Source: Gnetum montanum (Eukaryota > Plantae > Gnetophyta). From it: DNA of 64,000 nt. The notes under the pieces are model-generated. The model worked only from the letters and a program-made list of their open reading frames with translations, searched no databases and was not told the DNA's origin. The position numbers and the translations under genes were made by a program. Position 1 is the stretch's first letter. Every line of letters begins with the position of its first letter. Positions 2,388-36,465 of this stretch are shown here, one piece after another. The stretch spans positions 62,001 to 126,000 of the forward strand of contig MNCI01001656.1 of the NCBI GenBank assembly GCA_015680685.1. The letters are read 5' to 3'.

Positions 2388-2402
2388 ATGGCCCCTCTTT
2401 GT
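2388..2402 (-). promoter_or_regulatory. Polypurine tract of element A
   Basis: Minus strand AAAGAGGGGCCAT lies immediately before the 3' LTR start TGAAACA; near-identical to the B PPT. Confidence 0.85.
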
Positions 2403-3983: not shown

Positions 3984-4014
3984 TTGTTACCTTGCATTTG
4001 AGCCGAGCTGATGT

Positions 4015-12483: not shown

Positions 12484-12603
12484 CGTAGCTATATTGGCCA
12501 ACATTTTGTTGTAATGAAATGGATTAAAGGATAACATTCTTTGTTTTATGTGATATAAAGATTTTAATTTTTATGAAGTGAAACATATTGTTAGAAGGGT
12601 TAC

Positions 12604-12737
12604 ATGTTTTATGCCATTGCGGGCTGTTAATAGTTTAAGGTCATTTCGGGCTGGGCCATCATAAGCATAAAAGGGTATATAAAATTGCCAATTTTAGGCC
12701 ATAGCGGGCTGTAACTAGTTTAAGGCCATCTTAGGCC
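12604..12737 (-). repeat. Four stem-N6-stem motif copies downstream of the element A gag-PR
   Basis: GCC-ATTGCG-GGC (12613), GTC-ATTTCG-GGC (12640), GCC-ATAGCG-GGC (12698), GGCC-ATCTTA-GGCC (12724). Each is preceded on the plus strand by a TTT tract, as in the 3' UTR array. Confidence 0.75.
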
Positions 12738-12849
12738 ATAGTGCATATGAAAAAGCGTAATAAGGACAATGCAAAAATAGAGAGCGTAAATTGCATAACA
12801 GTAAATAATGTGGACTAATGTAACATGTTACGCCAACGTGTTTCATTGC

Positions 12850-15800
12850 TAACTCTGTAATTGCTTCTTGGTTATCTTTAGTTTTCACGACACGTATGGA
12901 CGAGGAGGCTTATTACAACATTCCTCTATGCTACCATATTCTCCCTGAAAATGTAGTTCAACCCAAGACAAGCTTTCATTGGCCATTGTGTCGGCCTATT
13001 TAGTTGTTGGGGTAGGGGTTTGATCTTCAGGGATTTCAATCTTCAAACCCTATTCTAGTTCCATGTTGTTAACCGCTTGCGGGGTCATCTTATCATCATG
13101 GATGATCACTTCCCCTCATATTTAGGGCAAGTGGATCTCTTGATGAATGGGTGATGAGACTGCTCTTAGTTCAGCCATCCAAGATCTCCCTAAGATTAGG
13201 TTGAAACCAAGAATCTCCTCGATGATGATGAACAATGCGTCTGTGGGGAATTGATCCCCTGCTACAAAATTGATGTGTACCGTTCCCTTGACTTGCAATC
13301 ATGCCCCGTTAAATGACTTCAAACATGACGTTGTTGTGGGATTGATCTGGTCAATCAAACCCAGTTTATGCACTATGGGATATGGAATGACATTGGCAGC
13401 TACCCCGTCATCTACGTGTACTCTCCAGATTCTATATTGACCAACGCAAATAGTGATGAACATGGGTGCTATTGTTACCTAACCCTTTTTTGGGTCATCC
13501 TTAATGGACTCATCATGAAATATTAGTTGGAAAGGCCATGATTGTTCAGCGGTGAGGGGAAGCATAATCAAATGGATTGCTTCTTCATCCGCTGGCAAGC
13601 TCTCATCCATGGGTATGGATGCTAACATGCGAACCATGGCTTCATGATATTTTTGAGATGTCATCAGCAAGTCATAGAGACTCAATGTTGTATTTTTCTA
13701 TTTAAGAGCCTGTTTAACTTACGTAAAAGCATTGAGAAGATCATGCCCACGATCTAGTTGCTTATTACCCTTCTTTTTTTCCATTCGTCCTAAGAGACAG
13801 ATCTCTTAGGGAGGAACAGTTTCTGGTTGAGGGTTGCATTTTATTGGGTTGGGAGAAGATGGTTGCATTTGTGTAGCATCATCTTTTTTAGAAGGTGAGG
13901 TCAAGGATGCTGAGGCGAGGGGTGTAGGCTTGGGAAACCCCAACGCTAGTCGATCCTTGGCTGTGTTACCCGTCATACGTCCTTCTCCTTTCTTGTTAGG
14001 TTGTGATTAGGACGTTGACTTAGAGATTTGCTCCTGCGTAGTAGGAGCAACTGATGGCTTTGGCACCTTGATGATAAAGGGTGTCTTAGGTGCGGGCGTG
14101 GGCTAAGCCATGGCTTTACTGATGGTGGGGTGTGGAACGAAGGTAGGAGATAGGACTCAGAGGATGAAAGGTTATCGCTGAGCTGCACGTTTCGATGTTG
14201 ATAGGCTTATCGTCTGAGACAGGAAAAGAGGCACATCGCCCTCCGTACCCACTACGTTGATAGTGTATCCTACATTATTTACGTTTAACAGGTCTTGGTA
14301 CACATGCATGGATTGGTTTTTTGGATAGATCAGACTATTGCAATCTAGGATCAGTTTACCTTGATCGATTATGCATTGAATGTCACTTTCAATGCCTAGC
14401 AGTAATCTGTGTCATGGCCACACATTTAGTGGTAGTCGCAAAAACGATCCAGCCTGAAGTTCTTGGGGATTGGCGGTTCATTAGGCAAGGCTAAGGAGGG
14501 GTTCTTAAGTAGCTCACAATGTCATCTGTGGCACTTCAGAGCCTCCTCAAACATCATCTTGTGTTGGATATGGCCAGTTCCCAGCAGTTTCTTTAGAAGT
14601 TCTGAAGGCTTTACAGGTAGAGCCATGTATTTTAAGTGATCTTTACACTCAAAATTAGGCTTCAGCTATGGTGGTACCTCAAGGGTGGGTGCTATTTCGT
14701 GATCGATGCTTTTTGAGCTAGTTGTGGTCTCAGCAGGTGCCATAGGTATTTTCTTATTGTTATTTTTCTTTTTGGCCCCTTTGGCCATGGCTGCTACTGT
14801 TGTTGTTGCAGCTTTGCCTTTATCTTTGCTCTTGTTGTGGGAATTTTTGTAGACCACATACACTGGATCTTTGCTAGCCTTGGTTGCATCTTGAATGCTC
14901 TTAGTCTAAGCGAAGGCTTGGCTAAGGGAGTAGGGACTGAGATAATACAGTTTAGACTTGATAAAGTTGTTGACTGCCCCCTTGAAGATTGCCAATAGAT
15001 GAGCCTCTATAATGGGTTCACAGATTTCATTCAAGGTGGCGCTCCACTGCTATATAAACTTTTGAATTGGCTCGAGCGGATCTTTCTTAACTCCCATTAA
15101 TTGGTCCAGCATGACTTCTAGTTTCAGTGTGTATTTGAAACAAGTCACGAACTAAGTTAGCAGCTCTTCTAGGGTTGAGATGGAAGAACGCAAGAGTGCA
15201 CGATACCAGTCTAGAGCTTTACCTATTAGGAACATGGTAAAGACACGGATGATGGTATGTGGTCATTGTTGAAGCAACAATGACTCTGACCTGAAGGTGA
15301 CTAGATGAGCGTTGGGATAGCCTTCCCCATTGTATTTTGTAAAATGGGGAAGTGGCATCCTAGGAGGTAATGACAAAACAGGCACTACCAGACTAACAGG
15401 ATCGTCATGGTAAAAATCCATGACCTATATTATGTTAGAATTGGAAACCTTGAGGCATTTAACCTCCTCAGTAAGGGTTTGAATAAGTTGANGAGGAGGC
15501 AACGACAAAACAGGAACTACCAGACTAACAGGATTGTCATGGTAAAAATCCATGATCTATATTATGTTAGAATTGGAAACCTTGAGGCATTTAACCTCAT
15601 CAGTAAGGGTTTGAATAAGTTGAAAGGCTTGATCTAGACCCATGGATGAAGAGGTTGTTTGTGAAATGGCAGGATGAGCCATGTTGGATTCTGGAATAGG
15701 GGCAATAGCTTGGCTTGTGTGCGATGTTATCAGGACTGCTCTTGTAGGTAGTGCTGCTTGTGACATACACCACCCGGTAGGTGGTGTAGATGGGGCAACA

Positions 15801-16657
15801 ACTGTTGACTGTGCCATGGGATATGTTGTTTGCGTAGCTGGGGGCACAGAAAATGGCCCTACAGTGGGGTTTAGTGCTTGCGGGAGTTGGCCTTGATTGT
15901 GTGGGAGATAAGACATCTGCGTAGACTATGCAACAAGAGGCAATGTATTTGGAGCCCACCACACAATGGTGGCAGGTCCTATCATTAATGGTTATGCAGG
16001 AGCAACAGCTGGGATGGTAGAAGCGGTATGTAACTGTGAAGTAGGCACTACGTGCACATGCGGTGATGTGGGTGTAGGTATACGATGAAACGGGTTAGTT
16101 AACTAGGATTGGAGAGGAATAGTTTGTGAAGGAATGACACTCGGGAAGGTAGCCGAAGAGAAGAAATGCTGATGGGCCACATGCGCAACACGATTGACGG
16201 TAGACAATGAAAGTGGCATAGTGATCATAAACAATAGATTTACACGAGACACCGTGGAGGGAAGGACCATAGCAAAGCTAGCATGAATGCCTCCCTCAGA
16301 GTGGGCATCTAGGTCATCCTACCCATCATGAAGCGCTTCATCATGAAAAAACTCCTCTCATTATTCTATTGATGCCCTGGCCATCAATAGTTGATCTAAG
16401 ATCCACTGTTGTTGATCCGTCAGGGGTATGAAAGTGCCAGGTGAAGGTATGAATTCCTTCCCGTTACAATAGATGAACTCGTATTCGTGTTTTTCTTCGA
16501 GTTCTTATGGATACATGGGCAAATTTGCCTCAAGTTTAGTGTAGAGGAAATTATAATGTTCCCTGCACTGAGCATGTTCCTCAAGCTCTTGGTTTTGGAG
16601 CCTGAGAAATCGGCATGGTCGCATTGGACTGGTTGGCGGCTTGACCATAGGAGGCAT
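12850..16657 (-). pseudogene. gag: Element A gag-protease (3' end approximate)
   Basis: N-terminal RFLRLQ..YNFLYTKLEANLP; capsid-like FTKYNGEGYPNAHLVTF; CX2HX4HX4C-type knuckle near 14400-14440; protease VHVDDGVAANVI...FNLILGRSW. Confidence 0.85.
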
Positions 16658-16940
16658 AACTTGCAGCGTCCAAGGGTTTTTGAGGTTAGCATTGTCAACA
16701 GTAGTGGTTGATGTAGCCTTTCTCTATGTAGTTTGAGAGTAATGACAACAAAGATAAAGATCACAAGGGTAAAGATGAGCTAAGACAAAAATGGACTTTC
16801 TATCCTGTAGGATTTTAGAGGAATCATCAAAGCGACCGATCTATACCACACAATCTCGTAAACAACCACAGAGGTATTACATTTATGTCAATCGAAAATG
16901 GGTACAGAAAACTTATAGGACTACCCATGAAATGCAGATT

Positions 16941-16968
16941 GGAGGTTCAGGCCCTCCTTCTAGCGCCA
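16941..16968 (-). promoter_or_regulatory. Primer binding site of element A, complementary to 28 nt of tRNA-Asn(GUU) 3' end
   Basis: Plus strand GGAGG-TTCAGGC-CCTCC-TTCTAGC-G-CCA has exact T-arm, acceptor strand, discriminator and CCA geometry. It lies 6 nt from the LTR. The tRNA identity is from recalled plant tRNA-Asn sequence. Confidence 0.85.
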
Positions 16969-16974
16969 GAAAAC

Positions 16975-18278
16975 TATAACGACAAAAAACATCGGTCATT
17001 GGAAACACTGAACGAAATTCCGTGTACATAGTTTTAACCCCGGATCCGTACGAGGGCCGTGCTAGAGAAAAAATGAATCCGAGGTGCTCTGAATGGTCTT
17101 GTCAATCAGATAGGAACTTACTCAATCAGTAAATTTGCTAATGATTGTATAATAATGCAACGACTTAATATGAAAACATATTATCGATTTACGAGAAAAT
17201 GAGATTTTCTTTGAGATTGGATCTTGAAGGCAGTGAAGGTGGTGTAAATTATGCAAAATGATCATAAAATTAAATATAAACAAGGTGCAATGAATTGAAC
17301 TTTGAACATGCACAATTCCAAGATCTGGGATCTCCCTTTATAGATAAATAGGATAAAGAGAACGGGATTTACAAGCAAACTTTGGTTTGGACAAGGTATC
17401 TGCTACAAACAAGAAGCTAATCATAGATGAAACAAGCAAAGGCCGATCTACCTTGTTCTAGCCAATCTGAGCAGAAGGGAGTCAGACTTGAAAGTAAAGT
17501 GTTTACTAACTTGAAATCTTTGATCAAAGGCTCCTATAGATCACCATCGATGCTCTTCTATTGCTAACTCTTTCTTGCCGTCTCACTAATCTTGGCCAAG
17601 TGAATTTGTTAAAAATTTTCCAACAATTGCCAACTACTACCAATATTTGTGTCAAAATTGTCAACCCTTTGAGCATTATCTGTCGGGGTATTTATAAGAT
17701 TAGGGTTAGGAGAATAATGTAGTTTAGATGACACGTGTCCTTAGCCCAAAAAATACAATTGACTTGATGTGCCATAGCTGGAGTTTACAGCGTTATGCTG
17801 TGCTATGCTCTAGAGCATAATATGTCATAATCTACCCTTGTTTTTAGTGCTACAGGATATTTAGAGCTTCGGTAACAAATTGTCCTATGGTTACGCTACA
17901 ATACACTAGGGAGTGTATCGTGGTGTAAGAACCGCTAATGCTTGAATTTTTCTATCTCTGTTGTTGCAATTAAATCAACTGTCTGCTTGCGTTATGCTGT
18001 GTTATGCTACATTATGCTGCATAGCATAACGTGGTATAATATGCCAAAAGTTAATATTTTCAATCATGGAAAGCTTGCAAAGTCGAAGTGTTGTTGCTGC
18101 GCATCCCTCGTTTCTGTTCTGTCTTTTGGAGTCTACTACATTGACCTGTGTAGTGTAGCATAGTAGGCCCTTAGCCAAAAAAAGAAGACTTGCTGAAATG
18201 TACCACTTATGGAAATCCTTTACCTAAACTTCAAGAATTTGCTGAATCATTAAGGTCTCGAAATTTCATGGTGTTTCA
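16975..18278 (-). repeat. Element A 5' LTR (1304 bp)
   Basis: Colinear with 1085-2387; the inner terminus CA has mutated to TA; adjacent to the PBS. Confidence 0.95.
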
Positions 18279-18283
18279 GCTGG

Positions 18284-19220
18284 AAACCTTGGTGATGCAA
18301 AAACATCTCAAACAGTTATAGGACCACTCATTTCAGTACCCTATAGTAGCTAGTTCATGGATCAGGAAATTCCAAGTGAGCTAGAATCAAAATCTCATGT
18401 TGTACACTATCATTTTGTTGTAAATTGGCAACATTTGTGAGCTTGTCAAGCTCTTATGCTTCAAATTGTATGCATAAGCATAATGTAAATCAATACACAT
18501 TGTAAGATGTAGTGCATCCAGTCTAAAACATAGTCTACCTATGTCCAGTGCATACGAAGCTATACATCCGACACCTGTCACACGATCCATTTTTCTCTCA
18601 TCTCATAGCCATTGATCTCGTTCACAAATCGTACTCCTGAGCCTAGAGAAATGCATAAATACCCTGTTCATTGACATAAATGGGATTGGCAATTTTGCAA
18701 AAAAGGATAACCTAAAGAGCATTGGTAGGAAACCTTGGACGCTCGAGTGCACGTAATCTCTAGCACTTGAGCATCTACAAATGCTTCATCCTTCATCTCG
18801 GGGCTTGACGCTTGACCTGTCATCTACACACGGAACCAAATTTTGACCAGTGCACTTTATTCTCTAAATCAATACAATACAGTCTTTTACCATCCATTAT
18901 GTTGTTTACATTATTCTAGTTCATTACATTGATTACATTATTCTAGTTCATCATTTTACATTTACATCATTCTATTCCTTTCTTACATTACATCTACGCT
19001 CCATTTACATACTCGTGTTACATTTGTTATGATAACCCCAATGCAAGCCATAGCTTACGCTCAGGGAGTCCTTGGTTGATTTGTGTGCAGATCATCCAAG
19101 GCACTCTACCTTCATTTTTCCAGCTTGCCCTCATGCGAAGGCAGGGTCACTTGTGTATCTTCAGAGATCTTTCGGCATTCATTTTCCTCCAGCCTTACGC
19201 CGATGATTTCAGATGGTACA
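18284..19220 (+). repeat. Element B 5' LTR, right part
   Basis: Colinear with 35528-36465; ends GATGGTACA. The two parts total 1974 bp versus 1963 bp for the 3' LTR. Confidence 0.95.
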
Positions 19221-19225
19221 GAAAT

Positions 19226-19245
19226 TGGTGCTAGAAGGAGGGCTT
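19226..19245 (+). promoter_or_regulatory. Primer binding site of element B (tRNA-Asn)
   Basis: TGGTGCTAGAAGGAGGGCTT, 5 nt after the LTR end. Confidence 0.85.
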
Positions 19246-19562
19246 CACGTTTTCCATCTCGATTAAACATTGAACCATACCAATCTATTTACGATTGTAT
19301 TAAATCCTGCAAAATTTTTACGTTGTTGCAAATACAGTAAATTTTGTAACTGTAGCTAAAAATATTAAGTATAGCATGCACACACTATGAAAATCCAACA
19401 CAGTGTACACACACTATAAAGCCCAACACTACGTACACATGCTGCAAAGCCTAACACTATGTATACACACTGCTACGCACACCACGCACACACACTGCGT
19501 CGCATTGCGCTTATGCTGCGCACAAGCTAGCATATGCACGTTCAGGTTGCGCTCATGCTAAT

Positions 19563-19690
19563 GCTTATGCCCAACTTGCTCAAGCTCAGCTTGCATACGC
19601 CTAGCTTGCTCAAGCTTAGGTTGCATATGCCCAGCTTGCTCAAGATCAGGTTGCATATGCCCAGCTTGCTCAAGCTCAGCTTGCATATGC
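19563..19690 (+). repeat. 30-bp tandem repeat (about 4 copies) in the element B leader
   Basis: Unit approximately GCATATGCCCAGCTTGCTCAAGCTCAGCTT. A looser ~27-bp CACACT-rich repeat precedes it at ~19380-19475. Confidence 0.85.
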
Positions 19691-19728
19691 TGCTCACACA
19701 AATTCAGCTAGCCAAGCTAGTTACACAT

Positions 19729-22700
19729 ATGGAATCTTCTGAAATCAAGGAAACATTGCTCATTTCTAATATTAATGTCAAAATCTCAAATCCTGTGACC
19801 GCAACTGAACCCATAGTCACCGTTGAAGAGATTAATCCTCAAGGGCCAACTTGTTGGTTTCTTAGGTTACAAGGAAAGGAACCCACATATACAATTCTCA
19901 CCCCTAAAGAATACAACTTCATTTGTGTAAAGATCCAAGCTAACCTGCCCATTGATTACATAGACCCTTTAGCATATGACATAATTCCCCGCTCTGAATC
20001 CCATCATGAACTCATATCCCAGCCCCTCATGGAAAGGAATCAAACCTCACGGCAACCCACCATGGAGCCTCAAAACAGAGACGAGGAAGATGATTTTGCA
20101 ACTCAATCTAAGCATGGGGATTCGTACCACACTCTCAGTCCTCATACTTATGCGAACCCATTATTCCACCCTTTCACGGGAGAGACCATGCCTCTTCACA
20201 CATTTAAAAGCACTCAAGCACCTGTCTCTCAATAGGAAGCACCCACCCCCATTCCTACTTTCCCTACAATCAATACCCAATTCAATGCGCCCATCCTTGT
20301 CATTCCTCCAATCACCACATTACCCTCTCTTCCATAAGTACAATCCCAGAAACTCTCCTCTCAAGCTAATATAGGAGCAACCTTCCCACCCCAAATAATT
20401 GGAATGCCCTCCGTAATACCCACTTCTACATCTACTCATTATGTACCACAAGTGCAAATCCAAGGAACACCCTTCACCACTTCAACTCAACAGGTTCAGG
20501 GTGTTTCCTCACAGCTTGTAACTGGGTAGTGGCCCGCACTTGTCATTCAACAGCATCAACCGGCTCATTACAGCATACCACCTGTTACAATCCCATCCAT
20601 GAATGTCCCTCAAGTACAAACATCAACAACCCTACAGTTATCTTTCCCACAAACTACACAACAATCTAACTATTATCATGCTCAATCTAACTAACCAGCT
20701 GGTCCACCTAGTGCCCAAGAATGAGTAGAGGCTAGAAAAATGATGCAAGCATTGACCAATGAGGTAAAGCATCTGAAAATTACAAACACTGAAGTAGTTA
20801 AGGTGATGGATTTTTATCAGGATGATCTGATTAGCTCTTCAGTGCCACCATTGACTCTACCAAAAGGAATTTCATTGCTGCAGTTGACCAAGTATAACGG
20901 AGAGGGAGATCCAAATGCTCACCTAGTGACATTCTGATTAGAGTGTCTATTACTTTAGGCTTGGCCTCATGCAATTCTGCGTGTGTTTGCCATGTTCTTA
21001 ATTGGAAGATCCTTACATTGGTACCGAGCCCTACCACATAACTCCATATCCTCTCTAGAGGATTTGTTACATCAATTCATTACCTATTTTAAGTATAACC
21101 TAAAGCCTGAAGCCATGCTAGATAGTCTAATTCAAATAAAACAAGCACCATTAGAGCCTGTACAAAAGTTCATCCAAAGATGGAGCATTGCTCTTAATGA
21201 ACTTCAAGAGCCTATCCTGGAAATGTATTTACTGACAATCCTCAAGAGTGCCATGAATGATTTCATTAAGTCAAAACTCTATTATCTTAGCGCTCGTACC
21301 TTGAGTCAAGCATTTGTCCAAATCAAAAACATAGAAGAGGCAGCACAAATAAGTCATGTCCTAGCTTACCAAACTTTTAAAAGTCAATATACGAGGAAAG
21401 ATAAGGATAATTCTAAAATGACAGTCGCAGCAGTGGCAAAGACAGCTCGACCCAACAATGCAGGGTAGAAAGGGAAACAACCCACTACCCCCACTAGTCA
21501 TGAAAGAACCATTCCTGCACCTACACTTGAACCCTCCTCTACCCAAATTGCTAACACAAGTCATACTCGTACCTTCGAACAAAAAGATCCTTCCCAGTAC
21601 ACACCCTTACCTGTGAAGCCCTCACAATTATTGGACCAACTTCTAAAGGCTGGGTTGATTCAACATAAGAAGATGTCCCCTACAACATCTCAAAAACACG
21701 ACCGATCCTATGAGTTGGTTAAAAACCCAACATTGGCAATGGCTAATTAACCCCCTGTCCCAAGATGTTTTAGGTTAGACAGATTTTGTGAGTATCACCA
21801 ACAATGTGGGCATGGAACTGATTACTGCTTCGCCCTAAAATAAGACATACAACATATGATTGACAGAGATGAGATAGTCTTTGATGAAGCCAACCTAGTA
21901 AGACCTTAAAATTAGTCTATGGGGGTCTACAAAGATCCTCTTAACACCAAAGAGTCACCCTATGTGATTAACATGATCCATGTCGGCAATGAACAAGACA
22001 TCCCAAAGCATTTTTTCATTTGTGTGCCTGCTAAAACTGTGTCTACACCAACACCTCCACAAGCTCCTTTTTCTACATATACATATCCTACATCGTGAAA
22101 ACCATTCATCATCCAAGTGTACCCTGAGGTTGCAATAGCAAATGTGCCATCGCAAACTTGACCCATTCCATTTGTAATTCAGGTGCCAAAACACTCTGAT
22201 GTGTAACCCCCAACAATTCCCCCATGACCCTCACGAGAACACCTCACTGATAGAATGACCAGAGAATGTTTGGCCAAAGAACGTCATGGTCATCAGTTAG
22301 GATCACCAAAACCCACATTATTGAATGCTGTCCCTATGATTCCAACTACTGATCAACCTAGCATGAGTCATCAAGACAAGAACTCGAGAGTGTCTAGCAT
22401 CCCAAATCTAACAGCTACAATTAATAACGTAAAAACTCTTTCGTAAGAGATACAAATGTTGGGTCAAATGGATCAAGTTTCGACAGGTAAAAACATTCCA
22501 AATAGAAAATACTTGGCCAGTGCCCTGACCCAAGTTACGTAGGCCTTAAAACAAAAGAACACCTCTGTAAGCCTATATGACCTAGTGATGACCTCCCTAG
22601 TACATTGGGAAGCTCTAGTGCATATGTTGACTTCAATCCCTATTAGTGAAGACCTTCCTACAAATGAACCATCCATTTATGTTGTATTATCTCCACATCA

Positions 22701-23445
22701 AAAATCGAGGTCCACATCTCTAGGATTTCATGCCAATGACATTAAACAAGATGAAAAAATGGGAGAGGTCACCACTGCCCCTATGTTTATAACAATACAA
22801 GTTAATCAATTTAAGATACATTGGGTGCATGTTGATGATGGAGCAGCAACAAATGTGATACCTTTTCCTATGATTAAACGATTAGGCCTTCCGAAACAAA
22901 TACGGCCAACAACAACATCATTCTTGGAATCTTTCAGTGGTTCTCATGTCATGGTAAAAGGCATGGTCACCTTGGATTTCATAGTAGGGGACCAATTCCC
23001 CATGTCAGTCAAATTTGTAGTCATAGATGAGATGCTGAGGTTCAATCTGATTTTGGGACGGCCTTGGTTAGCTTAATTAAAAGCCATATCCTCACCGATT
23101 CATCAAGAAATCCACCTACCATATGAGGGTGATGAAATCATCATACACGGGGATGTAGCAACATCACTTACTTCCTCACACGTAGGAATGAACCAAGGAT
23201 CAGAGGTTGAATTATCTAAACCTAAGCAAGACACTGCTAGTGAAACCCTAGACATTGGTCAATCTCTGACCCGCGACCTTCCTAAAACAGAGGAAGCATC
23301 ATAAGAGGCAGACATAGGAGCCATTCCCAAAGATGTCCCTTGGTCAAAACTACCATTTGACATATCCAGTGAGGGGGATGATGAGTACAAGATCATGCTC
23401 GCACATCCCACCCTTCATAGAAAATTACAAAAGTTAAAGAAATAG
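19729..23445 (+). pseudogene. gag: Element B gag-protease
   Basis: WFLRLQGKEP; LTKYNGEGDPNAHLVTF; SLHWYRALPHNSISS; CEYHQQCGHGTDYC knuckle; protease VHVDDGAATNVI...FNLILGRPWLA; many in-frame stops. Confidence 0.9.
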
Positions 23446-23463
23446 ATAAAAAACTAGGATGAA

Positions 23464-23702
23464 CCACCACACATCCAGAATGATGTTAAACTACCACACA
23501 TTTGGAATGATGTTAAACTACCAAACATCTGCAATGACATTAAACTACCAAACGTCTGCAACGACGTTAAACTAGCCATGGTCAGAGATGACCAGTTCTT
23601 CTAAATTCACCGAAACAACTACTGTCTCGCTTTCTTTGACAAAGATGCAATAGTCCACCATGACTTTAAATTGATATGTGTGGCCCAAAATGGCCTTAAA
23701 AT
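23464..23702 (+). repeat. Motif array after the element B gag-PR stop: four 27-bp units plus 2-3 dispersed copies
   Basis: CATC-CAGAAT-GATG-TTAAACTA; CGTC-TGCAAC-GACG-TTAAACTA; GTC-CACCAT-GAC-TTTAAATT (23653); GGCC-CAAAAT-GGCC-TTAAAAT (23682). Confidence 0.85.
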
Positions 23703-24019
23703 ATAGCATAATACATTACCATTTTACCAAAATCTTGCTACGGCATTCTCTCTTACATTTTGCAAATTACAATTTTAGTTTATCTTATGTTTACCAGTCA
23801 TGATTCCAGTTTGCGTTTACGTTCAAAAATAAACTTGAAAAAAAAAACAAAACAAAAGATATAAATATATATAATATGGAGTGTTAACATGGCAATAGGA
23901 TGATGACATATTACACCATGATCATGGTTATATTTGTTCTCATACATCCCAAAAAACAACAAAATGAGCTGAAAAACTAAAGAAAAACTGACAAAAAATG
24001 AAAAGACTGACAAGCTAAA

Positions 24020-27000
24020 TCATGCATTAGTATTAGGAGGGGGCTGGTCCCCAAACTCCCCTACATCATCAACTCTCGTCCCACTGGGGCCAACCTTACC
24101 AAAACCATGTCCCTATCACAAAAAGAAAAAAAAACAACAAAATAAGGAAACACACATAAATAGATTAAAAGAGCAAAAAAACTAAGGAAAATGATGATGA
24201 CTAAAGGCAATAAAACGATACAAGACTAAAACACTCATAGGTGAGCAAGGCCTAAGATTAGCTTCCAGACGTCATAGAATCTCTTCTTTGGGCACACAAG
24301 CCCTTCTCTCTCGAGTCTAAGGTCAACATTGGCTAAGGTTTTACCCTTGTCTGCTAAAGTCCAGGAGGGGCATTCAAGGGAAAACATACTTGTTGAAGCT
24401 TCCCTAGAGGCAGTGATAATGGATCTCTTAGGAGACCCACCCACTTCAGTACACTCAAAAAACTTGTCATAAGAAGAGTGCAAGCCTAATCCTTCAACGA
24501 ACATCTCCAACTGACAATGTTCAACTGATTTCTCTTTCAACCATTTCTTGTATTGATGCTTATGATCATTCTAATCCTAGCCCCATTTACGTACTTTGGA
24601 TGCAAAAGACTTCCAGTCATGGCACTTCTTGTCCAATAAATCCATCTGAGCCCTCTGTTCGGCCAAATCCTGAGTTGCCTGCACCTTGCTATTTAAGATT
24701 ATCCAATAATGTGCATAGGTGATCTCTGACGTACGCCAAGTACTATCACCGACCAGTCTAGCAGAGGCAAAATCATAATTGGCTTGCAAGTCATTCCTCT
24801 CCTCTGTTACCTTCGTCAAATTTTCCTTCAATGATTGAACTTCATGCCATAAGTGTTCAATTGAGCACCTACAAGTCCAGAGAGACTTGGCATTTGAAAC
24901 AAGACAACCCAAAACTACATCATAAATCCCTCTTGGGATTTGCTCAATATCTTTGGGAAATTTAGGGAGACCATCAATATGGGTGGCCTCGAAAGGGTTC
25001 CATTGAAGCTTTGCACCTACAAGTACAAACATCACACATATGAGCTAATAAGAGATTGCCAATAGATGCAAAAGCACAATCAGCTTAGGCACTTGGTATA
25101 GAGTACATACCTAATTCAGGATGAGCCTGTTGTAGATGAGTAACAACATCATTGACGATGCCTGTAGCAAAGTCTACTTTTTTGGGCATCTCAGGCCATG
25201 ACCTCAATTAACTAGTAGATGTTGGATCTACATGGGAAGGCACCTCAATTGAGGCCTATAACTCCAAAACATTTGCCTAAGATACATGTGCTTCAGATGC
25301 TTCATCATCCACGTCTGGTGTCAGGAAGAGTCATGACAATCAAAATAATGTGCAAAGCTAAGAAGTACAAAATGCAGATCAAACTAACAAAACATACTAA
25401 GAAGCCCTTTGCTGGTCAGCTTAGGTGGATCACCAAGGTGTAGAGATCCATCAAAGAAGCTGTCAAAAACACCTTTCTCCTCACTTGAATGATTAAGGGC
25501 ATCTAAAGCATCAACAAGTGTCACTTCCATGACATATGTTTCATTCCCTCCCTGTAAGATGGAAATATCCTCAGCTATTTCTTCTCTTATTTCTTCCTCT
25601 TCATTTACCCCAATGATAACTATTTCAGGTTCTCCCATTGGAGCTAATTCTTCCCTTTCCTTCTTGGGTATATCCTCTATGATCACCAATAAGTCTAAAG
25701 TTAGCATGACATAATAGGTATGCATACTTAAGAAAGAAAATAAAATCAAAAAGCGATAAAAACACTTAAAGTAGAAAAATACTTACCTGCTCCTGGCAAG
25801 ATGAATTGGATCTTCTTTGCTTTCAGCGGTCTTGCCTCCATAGTAGGTTCCCTTGAATGCTAAGCTCTCCTAACAGTTGTGTGCAATTTAGATGGTTCTA
25901 ACCCCAAGCTATCATGCGAATGGTGGGAATGACTAGCTGCACCCTCTATTGTGATGGAGACTAATTCTTTGATGCCTTTGGATGGATCTTGGTATCTAGT
26001 GATGTTAACTAGATGATAGATCTAGGGGCGAGACAATTGTGAATGATCCGTTAACACATAATGGCTATCTCCATAGACCACTAAGAACTCAACAAACCTA
26101 CGGAGATAGCCTGCGAAAAAGGCAAAGGTGAAATGGGATCTCGCATCAACATTGGAACGTAGCCTGATGATCTCTCCATAGATCCCTAACCCAAGGAACT
26201 GTGCCCAATCGTAGTGCATACCAATCTCCAAGACTAAGTGCATAACATGTGTAAACTCAACCCCAAGACTTCTCGCCTAAGAAAGAGACTTAGGAAATGG
26301 TCATGCTCTAAAGAGTGGATACAGAAAATTTACCTCCATCAAATGAGTATCAGCTTGCATGGCAAAATCCTTAGGATCCCATGGTACACCTAGCCAGTCT
26401 TCAAGTTCCTTGATTACATGGCCTTCTCTAGTTGCTCTATCCACTACCACCTTAGCACCATCTACTGGTACACCAAAAAGATCGAAAAAGAATTCAGTGG
26501 TTAGATGGAAAGATACCTTAACTCCCTGAACTCATGTAGTAAAATATGAGACATCATCATTAAAAGAGTCAACGATGGAAACCATTTTAGTCATGGGAAT
26601 GTTAGGAGTCAAGGCACTAAATAGGTCCATCAAGCTCGCATTTGTAAGGTGGTTGATGATTTTTTTAGGTGCCTTCTTGTGCAGCCACCATTATGACTCC
26701 TCTGTCTCTTCAAACTTCATGAAGAGCATAGCCTCAGTGCACCCAGATATGTCGGTAACCTCATTAATGGAAATTGCCACTGTAGAAAAGACAAGGAAGA
26801 CATTGAGCAAAAAGTTAAGAGTATGATAAGCAATGATGTTACAAAAATGAAAACCAAGCCTGGAACACAATCATTCACCATTAGCAAATGGAGTAGGCAC
26901 ATTTGGTGTAGGATCAACCATTTGGGGAAAAAATGGCCTATCAAGAGATCAATCCTCATGCAACTAGCTGTGAACTTTACAACGTTCAAAGGCCCTAGAA

Positions 27001-27681
27001 AATTTCCTAGGATAATTGACAATAGCACCCTTGGTTTGATCTAGCACCACAACACGAAGAGTGGGGCCCATCATGAATGCCTCCAAGGCTATGAGTGCTA
27101 AGGGAAGCCCACTATCATCCTCATGCAATCCATAATCATCAACATGGAGCCTGCAAAGGAAAAGTATTCATACGTAAACAATGATATAACATTAAAGGAA
27201 CCAAAGTTAAGATAAGTATAAAAGAGCATACCTATCTATTCTGTACACTGTTCTAGGAGGATTTTGGAACAACTTATGCACATGGAAAGCTAGAAAAAGA
27301 GTGCTACTACTGTTGTAATGGCTGCAAGATGATAATCTCCACACACGGGTCAAAGGACATGTGGATCTAGGACCTTTAGGAACACCTCCCTCGACTGTAT
27401 ATAGTCCCTCGTCTATGTCAAGAATGAAGGCTAACATGCCTCATGTTGAGCCAGGTAACATGGTCTCAACAATATCACGAGTCAGCTGCTCGCTCAAGTG
27501 AGACCATATGACAATGTTGAAATTCTGCAAAATAAATGATAGAAATGTAGTAACATTTGGATGAAACCATATTACATGCTGCCCGATCTGCATGTCATAA
27601 CTAGGCATGTTCGGTCCCAAAAGGCCAAACCAAGATAGCACACCAACAAGTTCAACCACCAGGAGAAAAGGCTTAAGTCCC
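24020..27681 (-). pseudogene. Antisense intron-containing accessory gene of element B, homolog of 8681-12483
   Basis: KPFLLVVELVGVL...IWFHPNVTTFLSFILQNFNIVIWS...YNSSSTLFLAFHVHKLFQNPP; FFDLFGVPVDGAKV...HYDWAQFLGLGIYGEI. GT-AG introns at 27151-27231, 26780-26878, 25677-25786, 25315-25397, 25017-25110, plus ~24113-24238 with a mutated donor. Confidence 0.85.
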
Positions 27682-29531
27682 CTACATAGCGCTAGAACCT
27701 TAGGTAAGTGAATTAAAATATATAAAACACATAAATTGAAAATAAAATAAAATAAGGCAAATAAATAAACCCAAAAAGTAAATAATATTCAACACATACA
27801 AGACCACCCCATGAGACAAGGACATCAATGTTTATTTGATGAATTTAACACTCGCTGGGGTACATTTAAAAAATTCATTTCATAGTAAACCAACAAACAA
27901 GTGTGAATACAAAACATGTACATTCATTGTCTAACCCAAGAAAGTAAAAATAAAAGGATACAAATAACCAACAACACTAAACGAATAAGTTACTCATGCG
28001 CTAGTTCCAAAGAATTCACACTGTAGTGCATATTGTAGTAAAATTTAGAGGGGAATTCAATCACGATGCAGCTCACGCTGCAACCCACAAACACGGCTCA
28101 TGCTACTACTCACAATGTAGCTCACGCTGCAACCCACATAGTGGTAGAACTTAGCTAACGATGGAGAGTAACTCATGCCCATACTACAAAAATTGCGGTT
28201 TTCTCTAGAGCGCTCATGCCTAGGAAAAAATTGGTAAAAATAACAGTTTTCTCTGGAACACTCATGCCCTGTCCCTCCCAGACACCCACGTTCATACTAT
28301 ACCCCACATCTATTGGTAATGCACAATGAGCTTGCCTTGCATTCCCATATCCTTCCTCTCTACAGCAGCTCACGCTGTGCCTAACATTTCATCAACATCG
28401 ACACCAAACTTACCACTCCGCACATGCTTGGTAATGTCACATAAAACCCTCAATCATGCTATCCACATCCCCTTAAAACCTCCATGCATGCCTTACACAT
28501 TCATGCACCCAACTCATGCCCTCACCACTCACGCTGGGCATCCCCTAGGTTGCTCACGCTGGGCGTGCCTTGGGCTACTCACACCAACTGATCCTCTTCA
28601 ACCAATAAATCATACAAAAACAAGAAATTTTGTAGGAATGTGCTTTGTCCATTACTTACACTACCCACACTCATGCCATCGTCCAAAATAGCAATGAACC
28701 CAAAGAATGGCAAGACCCAAAACCCTGTAATGTCCCTGACGCCCAAAATTTACAGCAACGAAAAAACTGCGATATAAAACCCCAAAATCAACAAAAATTT
28801 CATGCTGAAATTGTCACAAAGTGGTGGCCCTAATGGCTCACGCTGCACCTATGCTATGATTAAATGATGTCAAAACAAGAACATACTTGCATAGGGTCCC
28901 TGCCCATGACAAAATCCTGGGTTGAGGAAGGTGTTGAAGTAGTTGTTCGCTCTCCTTTGCGAATGATAAGCTAGCCTGCTTCTTCTCCTTGCCTTGGCTT
29001 GATTTCTCTTTCCCCTTCATCATTGCTAACGCTACTCACACTTTGTACTGTGGTTTCAAGGTTGCTCACACCACTCATGCCACTCACGCTCTATACCATG
29101 GTCACGCTGCTTCTTGCTCACGTTGCTCACGCTATAGAAGTTTACTCACGCTGGCCGCGTCGTTGCCCTCCAAACAAAGACACAAATGACATTCCTTTAC
29201 TTTGAAACGTCTTTTAAACCCCCCCTTTTGTTCATCCATTTTATTTTATTTCATTTTCATCCATGTTATGATTACCTTGTGCCTTATTTTGTTTTATTTT
29301 CATTATGATTATATGTTGTTGTAGTCTTATTTTTTGTAGTACTATATACACCTACACATAACATAAAAAAAATATAGCAAGGACATCACTGGCCTAGTAT
29401 GGCCTACAATTGCCATTACATTCCACAATTTCATTAGACTAATTATGTGAAATTAATCTACATTTAAAATCTTCTTCATCAAGAAAATGTTGCTTACTTC
29501 ACTCTCGGTTTAAATTGGTAGGAGCAACATC

Positions 29532-32500
29532 ATGGCAACCAAGAATAACTTATCAACATTGTCTCTCAATGGAGCACTAGAAAAGTAACAAGGACAATAA
29601 ATCTAGAATCCTTGGATCTAGACCAATCCACCTACACAAATTTAATAGTGTCCACTCAAGAAATGTTGGATTGGTTTGAAAACATGATGAGGACCCTAGA
29701 TCTAGAGGCCGACAATATCACTAAAGATCCTCTTACTAAATTCTCTATTGCCACTTCCAAAGATAAAACTAGAACATTAAAATTAAGTGTCTTACTAGAC
29801 ACACAACTTGCTAGTGATATCACTCAGGTTTTGAAAGAAAACATAAAGACATTTTCATGTTCTTACACTGACATGCTAGGGTTGGACCCTCGAATCATCT
29901 AACATAACATCATCCTTGATGAAAAAATTAAATCAGTGAAATAAAAGGCCCAAAGGGTTAGACCTGAGGTAGCGTTAGTAGTTCGTGATGAAATCACAAA
30001 GCTCTATCAAGCTGGTTTCATCTAGGCTATTGAATATTCTGACTAGATATCAAACATTGTTGTTGTCCCTAAGAAAAACGGTAGTATACACATATGCATT
30101 GACTTCCATGATCTCAACATAGCCACTATAAAGGATGACCTCCCACTACCCAGCATCGATAAACTCATTGACACAACTGCTAGGCCTGCATTTTTATCCT
30201 TTATGGATGGATTTTTGGGATACAACCAAATAGGAATCAATCCAAAGCATCAACTCAGAACTACCTTCATGACACCTTGGGGCACATTCTGCTATACAAT
30301 GATGCCACTCCACCTTAAAAATGTAGGTGCTACGTATCAATGAGTAACAACATACATATTTAGTGATTACATGCTTGACTTTCTCAATGACTATGTTGAT
30401 GAAATTTCAGTTAAATCTAAAAAAATTGAACAACATGAAAATGATTTAGACTTAGTGCTTAAACGTTGTCTTAAACATGACCTTAGAATTAACCCAAATA
30501 AGTGTGTCTTTGGTGTTAAAATAGGTAGAATGCTTGGCTTTGTGGTCTCCACAATAGGGATACGAGTAGACCTTGATAAGGTTAAAGCAATAACTAGTCT
30601 ACAACCACCTAGGAACCTCACCGAATTACGTGGTCTGCAAGGTAGATTGTAATTCATCAAGCACTTTATCGCAAAAATTATGAATAAGTTAAAACCCATG
30701 CAGCACTTACAATGAAAGAATGTGCATTTCCAATGGACTCAACAATGCCAGGAAGCATTTGAAGACATAAAAATGGAGTTGGCTTAACTACCAATAGTTC
30801 AACCCCCACAAAGTGATAAATTTTTTTACATCTACCTCGCCACATCCAATTGATCTATTGCATCCATGCTTTGCCAAAAATGAGAAGATGGAATCAAGAT
30901 CCCTATTTACCTATGAACAATGATACAATGATGTGGAGAGATTATGTCTTGCCCTGGTCTTTTCCTTGAAAAAGTGATGACATTATCTCTTCTGTAACCA
31001 AGTCTATATCATTTGTAAAGATAATGTGCTTCAAGCTATCACTAACAATGTCTATGAATCAAGTGGGATAGCTAGATGGAAAGTGATGATCGCTGAGTTT
31101 GACCTACACTATGTAACTCAATCCTCCACTAAAGGTCAAGTAGTAGTTAATCAATTGGCCATTTCACCAACACAATATTAAGCAATAATTAATCTCGAAT
31201 TCCCTGATGAAAGCATTAACAACATCAACACTATACCTGATAACTACGATGCAATCCTTTACTTCGATGGGGCTTCAACTTCCTGAGGAGGAAGTGCTGC
31301 AGCCATCATAATGTATCCTTTTGGAGAAATTTGATCCTTTACCTATCGAATAACATTCCCTTGTACCAACAACATGGTAGAGTACGAAAGTCTTCTTAGA
31401 GGTCTTATAGCAACACTAATTTCTGGAATCACACGTCTTGTAGTCCGAGGAGACTCACAGTTAGTAATCAATCAAGTCATAGAGGTTTATGCATGCAAGG
31501 CTTCTCATTTACAATCATACTGTGACCTAACTAAAAACTTGCTAAAAAAATTGATCAATGTAGATGTGCAACATATTCCTAGGAATGAAAATACCATCGC
31601 CGATGCACTTGCTACACTAGCCTTAAACATGACACCTGAGATGTTACATATGTTACCTAGTTCCATAACAAATTGTATCAAACCTATAACTGATGCTCTT
31701 GATGAAATACCCATAGCATCCATCAGTACTACACAAGCAATAGAATGGTATGATGACATAAAAGAGTACCTTCTACAAGGTGAACCACCACAACATTTGA
31801 CGAGTGCTCAAAAGGACGCAGTGCAAAAACACTCTCGGCAATATGCATTAATAGGAGACACATTATGTCGTAGATCCTATGAGGGTATTTTTTTGGTGTG
31901 AATTAATAGCCTCGATGGCCAAATAATCATGAAATAGGTTCACGAAGGACTTTGTGAAGGGAATATAGCACCCAAAGCAATGGCAATGAAAATTAGACGT
32001 TTGGGTTACTGCTGGTCACACATGAAGTACGATTGCTTGTCCAAGGTTAGAAAATGTAACATTTTTCAAAAGCATGGTAACCTAATACATGTGCCACCTA
32101 ATGAGTTTTATACTGCACAAATCACATGGCCATTCCAAAGATGGGGATTAGACATCATTGGGCCGATAACACCACCATCTTCAGGAGGACATAGCTTCAT
32201 CATCATGGCAACCGAATATTTCACAAAGTGGGTGGAAGCTATTCCTCTTAGAAAAACCATGTCTAAACATGTTTGCAATTTCATATTAGAAAACATCGTG
32301 ACCCGTTTTGGTATCCCCATGGCCATAGTCACCAACAATGGACCACAGTTCAGTAGTATGGATACTAAAAGCTTCTGTGAAAGCCTAGGTATTAAGCACT
32401 CATTTTCATCACCATACTACCCATAGAGCAATGGTCAAGCAGAATCTATGAACAAAACGATCATCATGGTGCTCAAAAAGATGTTGAATCAAAGCAAGAG

Positions 32501-32983
32501 ATGATGGCATGAGCAGTTAATCTATGCATTATGGGCATACTGAACAATGCATTGAACGTCCCAGGTAAGACACCATATAGCCTTGTATATGGATCTAAAG
32601 TTTTGTTACCCTTGGAGTTACAGGTTCCCTCATTTCGGACAACACTCTCCAGCCTCCTTGATGAAATCCAGAACAATGAGCTATGTGTTGCTGACCTTGA
32701 CTCGATGGAGGAAGAAAGAGTACGAGCCCTTGATCAAATCGAATGGTATCAGAGAAAACAACGGTGACGCCATCAACATAATCCACATAAGTGTCTGATC
32801 AAGGACGGTGACCTAGTTATTAAGGTGGTCCACAAACACTTGGATAAATTCTCAGCTAACTAGGAAGGATCTTACTTAGTCACCAAGGCATATGATAATG
32901 GGGCATTCAAAATCACCAACATGAATGGAAATGAATTCGCCAATCCTACAAATCACATGTATCTAAAACCATACTACGTTTGA
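29532..32983 (+). pseudogene. pol: Element B pol: RT-RH-aRH-INT
   Basis: SFMDGFLGYNQI, DYVDEISVKS; aRH LYFDGAS, TNNMVEYE, GDSQLVINQV; INT WPFQRWGLDIIGP, EYFTKWVEAIP; ends MYLKPYYV*. Confidence 0.95.
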
Positions 32984-33003
32984 TAAGCTTAAGTTATGCT
33001 TCG

Positions 33004-33310
33004 GTCCTGGCATCATGACCTAAAACTAATACCAAAAAATGGTCCTAGAGCTATGACTTAAAACTAGCACCACAGAATGTTTTGGCATCATGAAAATAAA
33101 CTGACACCATAGAGCTTTGTCCAGTATGATACTAAACTACCACACTTGTCCACCAGAGTCGACTACGACTATAAACTAGCTTGCCTCTTCATAGTTCACT
33201 ATGACTATAAACTAGCACTGCATCATTTGTTACGATGATAAACTGGCAACATGCAAAGGATTATGGTGTGAAACTAATCCACAATAGTTCACTAAGACTA
33301 CAAATTGGCA
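33004..33310 (+). repeat. 3' UTR array of element B: 9 units of the same stem-loop+AAACT motif, period 31-39 bp
   Basis: AAACT-type cores at 33023, 33061, 33098, 33134, 33173, 33209, 33240, 33271, 33302. Example unit: GTC-GACTAC-GAC-TATAAACTAG. Confidence 0.85.
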
Positions 33311-34489
33311 ATATCATCAACAACCTAGCATTATTTGAAAATACATGTTGCTGCAATCGGTTGTATGTGCTCACCAAGAAACTGACGCATGATTTTTCAC
33401 ATAGACCTTGATGAAATTGATGTTGTTCAAGATTTTGTGCACCTTGAAGCTCCACATGATGGCTCCATTCCATTGGCTACATTCTAGTTGAAAATGTTTA
33501 CCTAACTAAATCATTTGTGATTTTCTTGTCCCCTTGGAGTTGTGTTTGTAGGATGACATACTTGAGGCGTTTGCACACAGATGCACTTCATCATGATGAC
33601 AAGGTATCACATTCTTCCTAATGCACGTAACTGGGTTAATCAATTCATTCATAAGTACATTCCCAAATCCTGATACATCCCCTATTTCCCCATCATGTCC
33701 CAATTATCCTATTTAATTACATCCCTTGGACACATTCTACTCCCCCAAAGCTCTTGATACATTGTTGCACACTATGATCCTCTAAGTAGTTGCAACACAA
33801 AACACTGTACATGGTGCATGACACAAAAGGCAGGTGCTCAAACATGAGCAAGGCACAAAAAGTAGGCTCTTTTAAAAATACCAAAAGGAAAAAGAAAAAT
33901 AAAGAAAAAACAACGCAAAAACAAAAGAAAAGAAGAAACAAAGAAAAAGGAAAAGAAAACAAAAAGGTCAAAGAGAAAAATGCATGGAAATGGTCTTCAT
34001 GACCCTGTTGACATCATAGACTAAAGACCATTGGCTCTTCTCATACAAACCTAGGAGAGAAGGCAATTGTCTTGGAAAAACACTCGTGTCTCAAATGATC
34101 ATGTTGCACATCATCATGTGGCTTTGGTTGTTTACAACGGGCTCCCTTAAACATGACACAAGGGTCTCGTTTCTCCAAAGAATCCACATCCTATGCCTTG
34201 GTTCCAAGTTTGCTATACATTGGCTATTGACAAGGACCAAAAATTGGCTTGTTCACATGAGAGCATTCCTCTCCCGTAGTTCAAACAATGACATCCTTGA
34301 TCAACTCCTGACTTCCCCCAATTACAATCCCTTGCATCTTGAACCACATTTACTCAATCCCATGTTCTTTTGAAAATGGTGCGATGACATTTGGGCAATG
34401 GCCAATGGACAATGCTTGATTCCAGGTCGATCGTGGTGTTTTGTACTTCTTTGTCGATGCCTCTCGGGTGAATTCCTCCAAACGTCAAC

Positions 34490-34502
34490 AAAGAGGGGCC
34501 AA
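34490..34502 (+). promoter_or_regulatory. Polypurine tract of element B
   Basis: AAAGAGGGGCCAA directly before the LTR start TGAAACA. Confidence 0.85.
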
Positions 34503-36465
34503 TGAAACACCACAAAATTTCAGCTCAACACTTTGAAACAAGAACAAACCAGTGAATCAACACCCAAAGGTTAAAAAATTAGACTAATGTGCATGAATCT
34601 TGTCATGCACGCCGAGGCCATGCTCAAGTCACGCTACCAGCATACGTGTAGTGTGCACACAGCCTGCATACAACATGCACAACCTTCGAAGCTTCAAAAT
34701 CAGGTTAAAATAGTTCTAATTTGAATGGGAAAGACCCCCTTGGGGCCCACTGATGATTATTCCAAGTTTTAGCATCCAAAATCCAAGATTTCAAGTCAAA
34801 ATCACACAAATCTTACTACTCACACTGAGGTCACACCTAGGTCACGATGACAGCGTGAGTCCAGCATGAGTCCAGTGTGAGTAACCAAAAATAGCTCTAA
34901 AAAATGTTAAAATAGCCTAATTTTGAGGGTGCAAGGCCCCCTCAAGGTCCACTAGTTATTTCTCTAGGTCCCAGCCCTCAGAATTCTAATTTTGGGCTCA
35001 AAAATACATCATTTTTAGCACTCACGCTAAGGTCAAGCCTAGGTCACACTAAGGTCATGTTGATAGCGTGAGCCCAACATGAGTTGCCAAAATAACCTGA
35101 ATCAAGGTACAAATAGGCTCAAACTTAGCTTGCAGGTCATCCCCAAGGGCAAGCGGTAGTTACACTTGAAAGAAAGGTCTCAAAAAATCAAGATTTGGTG
35201 TGAAATGAACCATCCTAGCTTGCTCACGCCTAGGTCATGATGACGACATGAGCCTACATGAGCTGCCAAAAGTGACCTAAATCCAAGCAAAAACATGCTC
35301 AAATTGAATATACAAGACATCATCAAGGTTAAATAGTAGTTACACTTTAAAAAAAAGTATTAAAGGTGAAATCTTGATGCAAAATACATCATTTTTGGTC
35401 GGTCACACTGAGGTCATGCCCAGGTTACGCTGGCAGCATGACTCCAGCGTGAGCATTGGTCATGACCAAGACAAAGCACTTTAGACACATGCTGAGGGCA
35501 TGCCAGGATAAGATCAATGTATGTTGGCAACCATGGTGAAGCAAAAACATCTCAGACAGCTATAGGACCACTCATGTCAGTACCCTGCAGTAGCTAGTTC
35601 ATGGATCGGGAAATTCCAAGCAAGCCATAATCAAAATCTCTTGTTGTACACTATCATTTTGTTGTAAATTGGCAACATTTGTGAGCTTGTCAAGCTCTTA
35701 CACTTCAAATTATATGCATGAGCATAATGTAAATCAATACACATTATAAGATATAGTGCATCCAGTTTAAAATGTAGTCTACCTATGTCCAGTTCATACA
35801 CAGCTATACATCCAACACATGTCACACCATCCGTTTTTCTCTCATCTCACAACCATTGATCTCGTTCACAAATCCTACTCCCGAGCCTAGAAAAATGTAT
35901 AAATACCTTGTTCATTGACATAAATAGGGTTGGAAATTTTGCAAAAAAGGATGACCTAAAGAGCATTGGTAGAAAACCTTGGACACTCGAGCGCACGTGA
36001 TCTCAAGCACTTGAGCATTTGCAAATGCTTCATCCTTCATCCCGGGGCTTGACACTTGACCTGCCATCTACACACGTAGCTGCATTTTGACCGGTGCACT
36101 TTATTCTCTAAATTAATACAATACAGTCCTTTACCATCCATTACACTGTTTACATTATTCTAGTTCAATATGCTGATTACATTATTCTAGTTCATCATTT
36201 TACATTTGCATCATTCTATTCCATTATTACATTACATCTATGCTTTGTTTACATACTCGTGTTACGTTTGTTATGATAACCCCAGTGCAAGCCATAGCTT
36301 ATGCTTGGGGAAGTCCTTGGTTGATTTATGTGTAGACCATCCAAGGCACTCTACATTTGTTTTTCTAGATTTTCCTCACACGAAGGCAAGGTCACCTATG
36401 TCTCTCCAGAGATCTTTCGGCATACGTTTTCCTCCAGCCTTACGCTAACAAATTCAGATGGTACA
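34503..36465 (+). repeat. Element B 3' LTR (1963 bp)
   Basis: TGAAACACC...GGTACA; colinear with 48-1084 plus 18284-19220. Confidence 0.95.

Follow-up and report, generated by a model that had tools for sequence, protein, structure and literature searches.

A short hairpin unit that recurs in three nested retrotransposons of Gnetum montanum matches, in sequence, stem pairing and position, the hexaloop coremin (xrRNA-C) of RNA viruses, and appears, with strong support from its sequence and placement, to represent an RNA motif known from viruses, carried here by a host element of a new kind. Exoribonuclease-resistant RNAs have been described from viruses, and we consider it quite probable, judging from the DNA letters, that in the active ancestors of these elements the units served as roadblocks for XRN4, which would have left uncapped 3′ RNAs with starts behind gag-PR, ahead of pol and behind pol.

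The stretch of DNA analyzed here (the window; 64 kb, positions 62,001 to 126,000 of contig MNCI01001656.1) contains in its first 41 kb three nested, decayed plant Ty3/gypsy elements, named A, B and C. Element A is full length (1086..18278, minus strand) and is inserted with a 5-bp target duplication in the 5′ LTR of element B, which is likewise full length (48..36465, plus strand) and is itself inserted in the integrase of element C. Only pol (RT, RH, aRH and INT) and its upstream spacer are left of element C (36466..40900, minus strand; the left limit is the B insertion and the right limit is approximate). The LTR identities of 86.5% in A and 88% in B, with pair differences that are mostly transitions, indicated that the elements are old and decayed. 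The domain order is gag-PR followed by RT, RH, aRH and INT (Pfam RVT_1, RT_RNaseH, RVT_3, Integrase_H2C2 and rve), with gag and protease in one frame and with aRH between RH and INT as is characteristic of the Tat clade; by this order all three belong to the Ogre/Retand type of that clade. In element B the gag-PR stop codon is located at 23443-23445 and pol runs from an ATG at 29532 to 32983, both on the plus strand. RT identity between the two families represented is only 57%, and a quick tree of 63 RT rows placed A, B and C on a long branch of their own, outside the sampled Ogre/Retand-like groups and loosely beside water-lily and gymnosperm sequences. The gag of A also has a 132-bp tandem duplication (15362-15627) with an N at its junction, which may be an assembly artefact.

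The unit has a stem of 4 bp that closes a loop of 6 nt and is followed by a tail of the AAACUA type, and 30 sense-strand hexaloop copies in A, B and C were curated by eye and with a PWM, with four longer-loop variants and one stem lacking a tail left out. Six copies follow the gag-PR stop in B and four do so in A, four precede pol, and the pol stop is followed by 11 in A and five in B. The array after gag-PR in B (23472..23704, plus strand) has coremin-type units at 23472, 23499, 23526, 23553, 23652 and 23682, all of which were matched by a covariance model trained on viral copies (best E 0.0011); a 27-bp repeat spans 23462-23574, and the stem without a tail at 23580 (23579-23594) occupies the expected place of a second hairpin for unit 23553. 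The corresponding array in A (12603..12737, minus strand) has units at 12737, 12710, 12652 and 12625, of which the model matched three, and the loops of 12652 (CGAAAU) and 12625 (CGCAAU) are both among the natural viral loops given in the text of PMC10520033. The first-pass annotation, made from the letters of this DNA, had reported the motif in element sense orientation outside the 3′ UTR, with six to seven copies in B and four in A after the gag-PR stop, and these copies were all recovered where it had placed them, the seventh in B being the stem without a tail.

Before pol, a unit in A (7777..7799, minus strand; 337 nt before the pol ATG) with the loop CGAAAA conforms as it stands to the coremin rules for loop, stem and spacer, and was matched by the model with an E-value of 0.0012. 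The other copies before pol are a decayed unit in A (7571..7593, minus strand; 131 nt before the ATG), a decayed unit in B with a C-G second pair (29391..29413, plus strand; 141 nt) and a unit in C (39578..39623, minus strand; 176 nt) that has a loop fitting YGNNAD, a spacer core that is not intact and a predicted 8-bp hairpin directly after it. These three, together with A 12710, are without the AACUA core and unmatched by the model at E ≤ 5. The B and C copies are orthologous and thus count once. The annotation's claim of copies before pol in all three elements (numbered here 7799, 7593, 29391 and 39623) therefore holds for their presence, with only 7799 recognized by the model, and its broader claim that the motif marks both the gag-PR stop and the entry to pol in all three holds for A and B and does not extend to C, for which no gag-PR was found within the window. 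After pol, the array of B (33003..33308, plus strand) has five hexaloop units along with longer-loop variants and begins 19 nt past the pol stop, and that of A (3590..3982, minus strand) has 11 hexaloop units and one longer-loop variant and begins 32 nt past it. Units with 10-nt loops were seen at 33003, 33041 and 3773, and a viral contig (L012) has an 8-nt loop with a similar start.

According to the main text of PMC6546385, coremin begins with a hairpin of 3-4 bp that is closed by a pyrimidine-purine pair, and a spacer with an essential AACUA core and then a second hairpin follow; the second stem pair can be swapped, the fourth is lax, and pairing outweighs sequence. The spacer core begins 2-3 nt past the hairpin and the second hairpin, of at least 2 bp, stands directly behind the spacer (PMC6546385, PMC10520033), and in the hexaloop form, xrRNA-C, the loop is YGNNAD, Xrn1 halts one base before the hairpin, and scanning ribosomes are stalled (PMC10520033). 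The 3D structure of coremin was given as unsolved in the portions of PMC10520033 consulted. The match was judged by these main-text rules rather than letter by letter against the published motif lists. When a tandem pattern derived from the window was searched on viral contigs, 62 stretches matched; none of them encodes a retroelement protein or RT, and an RT search of the viral contigs returned no relative. Although loop positions 1-4 were free in this pattern, 39 of 50 distinct viral matches start with CG, and the commonest loops retrieved are those reported as Xrn1-resistant in the consulted text of PMC10520033. One viral contig carries a tetraloop form beside hexaloop forms. A scan of window positions 1-41000 with Rfam gave nothing meaningful, and on 20 of the viral loci Rfam returned no family for the motif.

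Stem pairing is present in 91.7% of the 120 cells formed by the 30 copies, a level reached in none of 500 shuffles, and slid controls gave 17-48%. The second pair is U-A in 23 copies and C-G in six with pairing kept, so the compensatory switch noted in the first-pass annotation is real; the fourth pair is lax, with four Watson-Crick types among the copies, and the top three pairs are present in 27 of 30. The closing position has a 5′ pyrimidine and a 3′ purine in every copy (C-G in 24, U-G in four, U-A in one and unpaired in one). This covariation agrees with the published coremin rules, and the first hairpin has the length of 3-4 bp, the pyrimidine/purine closing pair and the precedence of pairing over sequence found in coremin. 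Tandem copies are related by duplication, and therefore these counts overstate the number of independent events. Folding z-scores of single copies were weak except at 23545-23605 (z -2.8).

Positional enrichment over shuffled sequence, which the first-pass annotation had proposed to look for, was found. A PWM trained on the copies after pol only (16 rows, one of them 2 nt out of register) gave five matches scoring at least 14 in the sense strand of B outside the UTR vs. 0.07 expected from 100 shuffles, and none on antisense strands; on A and C alone the same PWM was weak, since 10 and 1 of 100 shuffles, respectively, scored as high. The covariance model, for which 51 viral copies served as training set and the E-values were roughly calibrated, gave 21 matches at E ≤ 5 across both strands of the 64 kb. 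Of these, 20 fall in sense orientation within the three zones, one behind gag-PR, one ahead of pol and one behind pol, and the zones together cover about 6% of the elements; the best matches (23552 and 7775-7800) have an E-value of about 0.001. This result is supportive and not fully independent, because the viral training set was obtained through a pattern derived from the window and was filtered for paired stems, and because the zones were drawn after the copies had been seen. A loose stem-plus-tail descriptor was dropped as too noisy (162 matches).

Most of the window copies are, as read from the DNA, decayed in a pattern of methylation. Only three of 30 satisfy the loop, stem and AACUA rules together as they stand, and the YGNNAD loop fits nine of 30. 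The loop starts with CG in five copies, TG in seven, CA in seven, TA in eight and other letters in three, i.e., with CG or a product of its methylation decay in 27 of 30 (background 0.24, p 4e-14), and position 5 of the loop is A in 28 of 30. CpG decay is common in these elements, as 40 of 63 CG sites in one LTR of A are TG or CA in the other. The YGNNAD loop is thus supported for the family, though most single copies deviate from it. The AACUA core is intact in 12 of 30 copies, including four of six in the array after gag-PR in B; its two central A's are invariant in all 30, and most of the other copies differ by C-to-T or by a final G. Loss of the spacer C was seen in six of 10 CHG-type contexts vs. 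one of 13 others (p 0.019). Ten copies have G instead of A at the last essential base of the spacer, which lies beyond the changes tested in the consulted text of PMC6546385. A second hairpin was detected in 12 of 30 copies compared with 30% of 600 control sites under a stricter 3-bp test, and is therefore not enriched; it is clear for 23553 and 39623. Where copies 2-4 of the window deviate in stem or loop, 29-77% of the depth in genomic contigs from two runs (2056 and 2498 records at 80% likeness, with unphased counts that pool all arrays of the family) agrees with the viral letter, and 83-87% of depth has a letter that lengthens the second hairpin behind copy 4.

One weak match fell in a coding region and none on an antisense strand; like coremin, the units keep to sense-strand sequence that is not part of a reading frame. 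The first copy stands 26 nt after the gag-PR stop in B and 105-111 nt after it in A, so the clustering just 3′ of this stop codon described in the first-pass annotation is borne out in B and is looser in A. In 32 of 34 distinct viral loci no more than 150 nt separate the first copy from a stop on its strand; the copies stand 6-14 nt past stops in many loci, are often 26-27 nt apart and in several contigs follow more than one ORF. A position after stop codons can be understood from the exclusion of coremin from reading frames, and the viral copies share it. In one viral contig (L001:631-920) two units lie between an ORF stop and a cripavirus-type IRES, an arrangement that could yield a translatable protected RNA. 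Five related contigs (L017, L023, L037, L046 and L059) carry a variant with a CGUGAC loop 82-91 nt past a 129-aa ORF, and the first of them also has a permuted tmRNA and a tRNA. Phage-like DNA contigs (L005/L009, L012/L013 and L024/L060; 13-74 kb) have a canonical hexaloop unit 6-47 nt past stops and encode Clp protease, a peptidoglycan-binding peptidase and adenine methylase. To our knowledge, bacteria lack Xrn1. The unit in these contigs, placed after stops, makes a role beyond Xrn1 stalling possible.

If the units were XRN4 roadblocks, 5′-to-3′ decay by XRN4 would begin once an element RNA had been decapped or cut, and would come to a stop at the first unit that is not in a reading frame. 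The products would be nested, uncapped, 3′-coterminal RNAs with 5′ ends behind gag-PR, shortly ahead of pol and behind pol, and tandem copies would give redundancy as they do in viruses. Plant XRN4 makes coremin-protected RNA in yeast (PMC5869530, as far as consulted). Candidate roles for the protected RNAs are damping of silencing or of XRN4, protection of the 3′ end, and use as a template for Pol; in Arabidopsis, fragments of transposon RNA are a substrate for which XRN4 competes with RDR6 (PMC8892269, in the part consulted), so that an element could gain or suffer from such fragments.

Copies stand 131-337 nt before the ATG that opens the pol frame, and this ATG has nearly the same place in A and B/C. 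The ATGs in question (29532 in B, 39447 in C and 7462 in A) are each followed by G and have an in-frame stop and a candidate acceptor upstream. The shared ATG hints at a separate initiation of Pol; other ATGs intervene, and pol may instead be reached by Ogre-like splicing. A more far-reaching proposal, which we regard as rather doubtful, is that the lineage used XRN4 as a processing enzyme to make nested subgenomic RNAs, including an uncapped pol message with a conserved AUG and 3′ non-coding RNAs that would damp silencing. The main rival to a roadblock gives coremin a mostly translational job, in which it would block scanning or post-termination ribosomes, insulate ORFs and keep Pol low relative to Gag, with Xrn resistance incidental. 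The placement before the pol ATG at the same site in two diverged families speaks for such a job, as do the viral copies 6-14 nt past stops, including those in phage-like contigs where Xrn1 is absent. In addition, xrRNA-C in a 5′ UTR lowers luciferase output about five-fold and also works in wheat germ extract (PMC10520033, consulted portions). Against it, the largest arrays follow the pol stop and have no downstream ORF to insulate, and the in vivo data on viral coremin in the consulted part of PMC5869530 concern Xrn-dependent RNA production. We consider it unlikely as the principal function; it is compatible with a roadblock for XRN4.

Four RNA runs with low coverage revealed no splice joint in the interior of B, and the RT acceptor is a predicted one. 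Read pile-ups on the B interior occur only at genomic A-runs, with the library strand ambiguous. Read starts did not pile up at the units in these runs, in which coverage was low, reads were mostly less than 90% alike and the libraries were ill-suited; reads touching the array numbered 75 and 34 in two runs and came mostly from one transcribed relative.

The first-pass annotation had read the motif as a shield against NMD, by analogy with the stability element of RSV, or as a signal for 3′ processing, packaging or export. The RSV stability element protects full-length RNA from UPF1-dependent decay. The units do stand 3′ of both sense stops, and about 12 kb of RNA past the gag-PR stop would presumably be an NMD-prone layout, yet the match to coremin accounts for sequence, pairing and position without any of these functions. 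A coremin need not prevent NMD, since a roadblock acts after decapping. Furthermore, small viral contigs have the unit next to an IRES or to elements for cap-independent translation, as is typical of RNA viruses that are cytoplasmic and use no nuclear 3′ processing or export, and the RNA pile-ups mentioned above fall on genomic A-runs rather than on a shown poly(A) site after an array. These specific proposals therefore seem to us decidedly improbable; what stands from that reading is a sense-strand, covarying, stop-linked RNA element that is likely to concern RNA stability.

The spacer of about 6 kb between gag-PR and pol in B contains an antisense gene (24200..27900, minus strand, limits approximate) that is decayed, probably multi-exon and spliced, and possibly has a coiled-coil end. 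Its homolog in A (8690..12050, plus strand, limits approximate) is 31-38% identical to it in most blocks. The parts of the protein scanned had no Pfam family at the curated cut-off, and among 5069 candidates of 152-503 aa there was no homolog. In the passages of the Tat literature compared, no antisense gene is reported between gag-PR and pol. Many dispersed CTCACGCTG-like words were also seen at 28050-28600, 29060-29160 and 39990-40900, where the promoter of the antisense gene is presumed to lie, and in the LTRs of B. The arrays flank the antisense gene, and Retand antisense proteins are predicted to bind DNA in the consulted text of PMC11963269; the unit could on that account be a DNA palindrome bound by the element's own antisense protein as an anti-silencing target. 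This explanation has only the slightest chance of being right, given that all copies face one way and have a one-sided tail, that pairs change in identity without loss of pairing (pair 4 has four Watson-Crick types), and that the unit is also found in viral contigs without a retroelement gene.

To ascertain how widespread the motif is, the 80 best-ranking of 557 Ogre/Tat loci found in metagenome contigs, 754 kb in all, were scanned. This sample, which is redundant and in which many loci are without PR or the region after pol, gave no strict match and five scattered relaxed ones, seven PWM matches compared with 6-10 in shuffled sequence, and a single covariance-model match with an E-value of 7.2. 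The PWM matches were at background level, and generality of the motif to Ogre/Tat was rejected for the sampled loci, in which the motif is absent; in this sample it is restricted to the lineage of A, B and C. The tandem repeats of the sampled loci are unrelated to the unit, and the spacer words occur in none of five supplementary files on Lathyrus satellites (PMC7004042). Tat, Ogre and Retand elements often have family-specific arrays beside pol (PMC7004042, PMC11963269), Tat arrays are treated as a source of satellites in the consulted text of PMC7004042, and their origin and function were described as unknown in a 2025 survey (PMC11963269, as far as consulted). Considering these arrays and the shortness of the unit, the copies might be neutral, hypervariable Tat repeats that resemble coremin by chance. 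This is very unlikely, for the unit is kept at three separate sites, with compensatory changes, in families only 57% identical in RT, and the arrays of the other Ogre/Tat loci bear no relation to it, with zero strict matches in the 80 loci.

In the portions of PMC6546385 and PMC10520033 consulted, published coremin searches covered RNA viruses only, and no title or abstract among the matches listed, subscription papers being outside the scope, describes a natural xrRNA or coremin in a transposon or retrotransposon. With the present match, one Tat array gains a specific and cheaply testable candidate function that does not extend to the 80 Ogre/Tat loci sampled, and dozens of natural variants in one genome become available as covariation data for coremin. 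If the roadblock reading is true, many XRN4 roadblocks would exist in plant genomes and could shape degradome and small-RNA patterns; if XRN4 in addition acted as a processing enzyme, this would be a new way of Pol expression in an LTR retrotransposon and an RNA module common to RNA viruses and a retroelement.

The elements share with Ogre and Retand, as described in the consulted parts of PMC6317226, PMC4408406 and PMC11963269, a gag-PR separate from pol, the order RT-RH-aRH-INT, an extra antisense ORF and tandem arrays beside pol. The antisense gene lies here in a gap of about 6 kb between gag-PR and pol, a gap for which an average of 274 bp is given there in Ogre. Assignment to Ogre proper, with its short spliced intron in that gap and its extra sense ORF 5′ of gag, was rejected on the size and antisense gene of the gap and on the four low-coverage RNA runs, which showed no splice joint. 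So was assignment to Retand proper, in which an antisense TRP28 ORF lies between pol and the 3′ LTR; here the antisense gene precedes pol, behind which no more than about 1.5 kb follow. The intergenic xrRNAs of Tombusviridae and Luteoviridae, which are found at the 5′ ends of coding subgenomic RNAs or close to them, have a different and larger pseudoknot fold and are accompanied by cap-independent translation signals (PMC6299227, consulted text), none of which were identified in the window. In contrast to viral coremin, the host of the unit is a nuclear-transcribed LTR retrotransposon with arrays of up to 12 units, most copies are decayed, exoribonuclease resistance is predicted from their sequence, and among the units are loops with YAY ends, loops of 10 nt and spacers that end in G. 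The resemblance is nevertheless closest to coremin/xrRNA-C of the hexaloop form, as known from BNYVV RNA3, cucumoviruses and umbra-, enamo-, hypo- and chrysoviruses (PMC6546385 and PMC10520033, in the portions consulted): hairpin and closing pair correspond, the YGNNAD loop does so for the family and the AAACUA-type spacer in part of the copies, and so do the tandem repeats and the location in 3′ UTRs and at intergenic sites just past stop codons.
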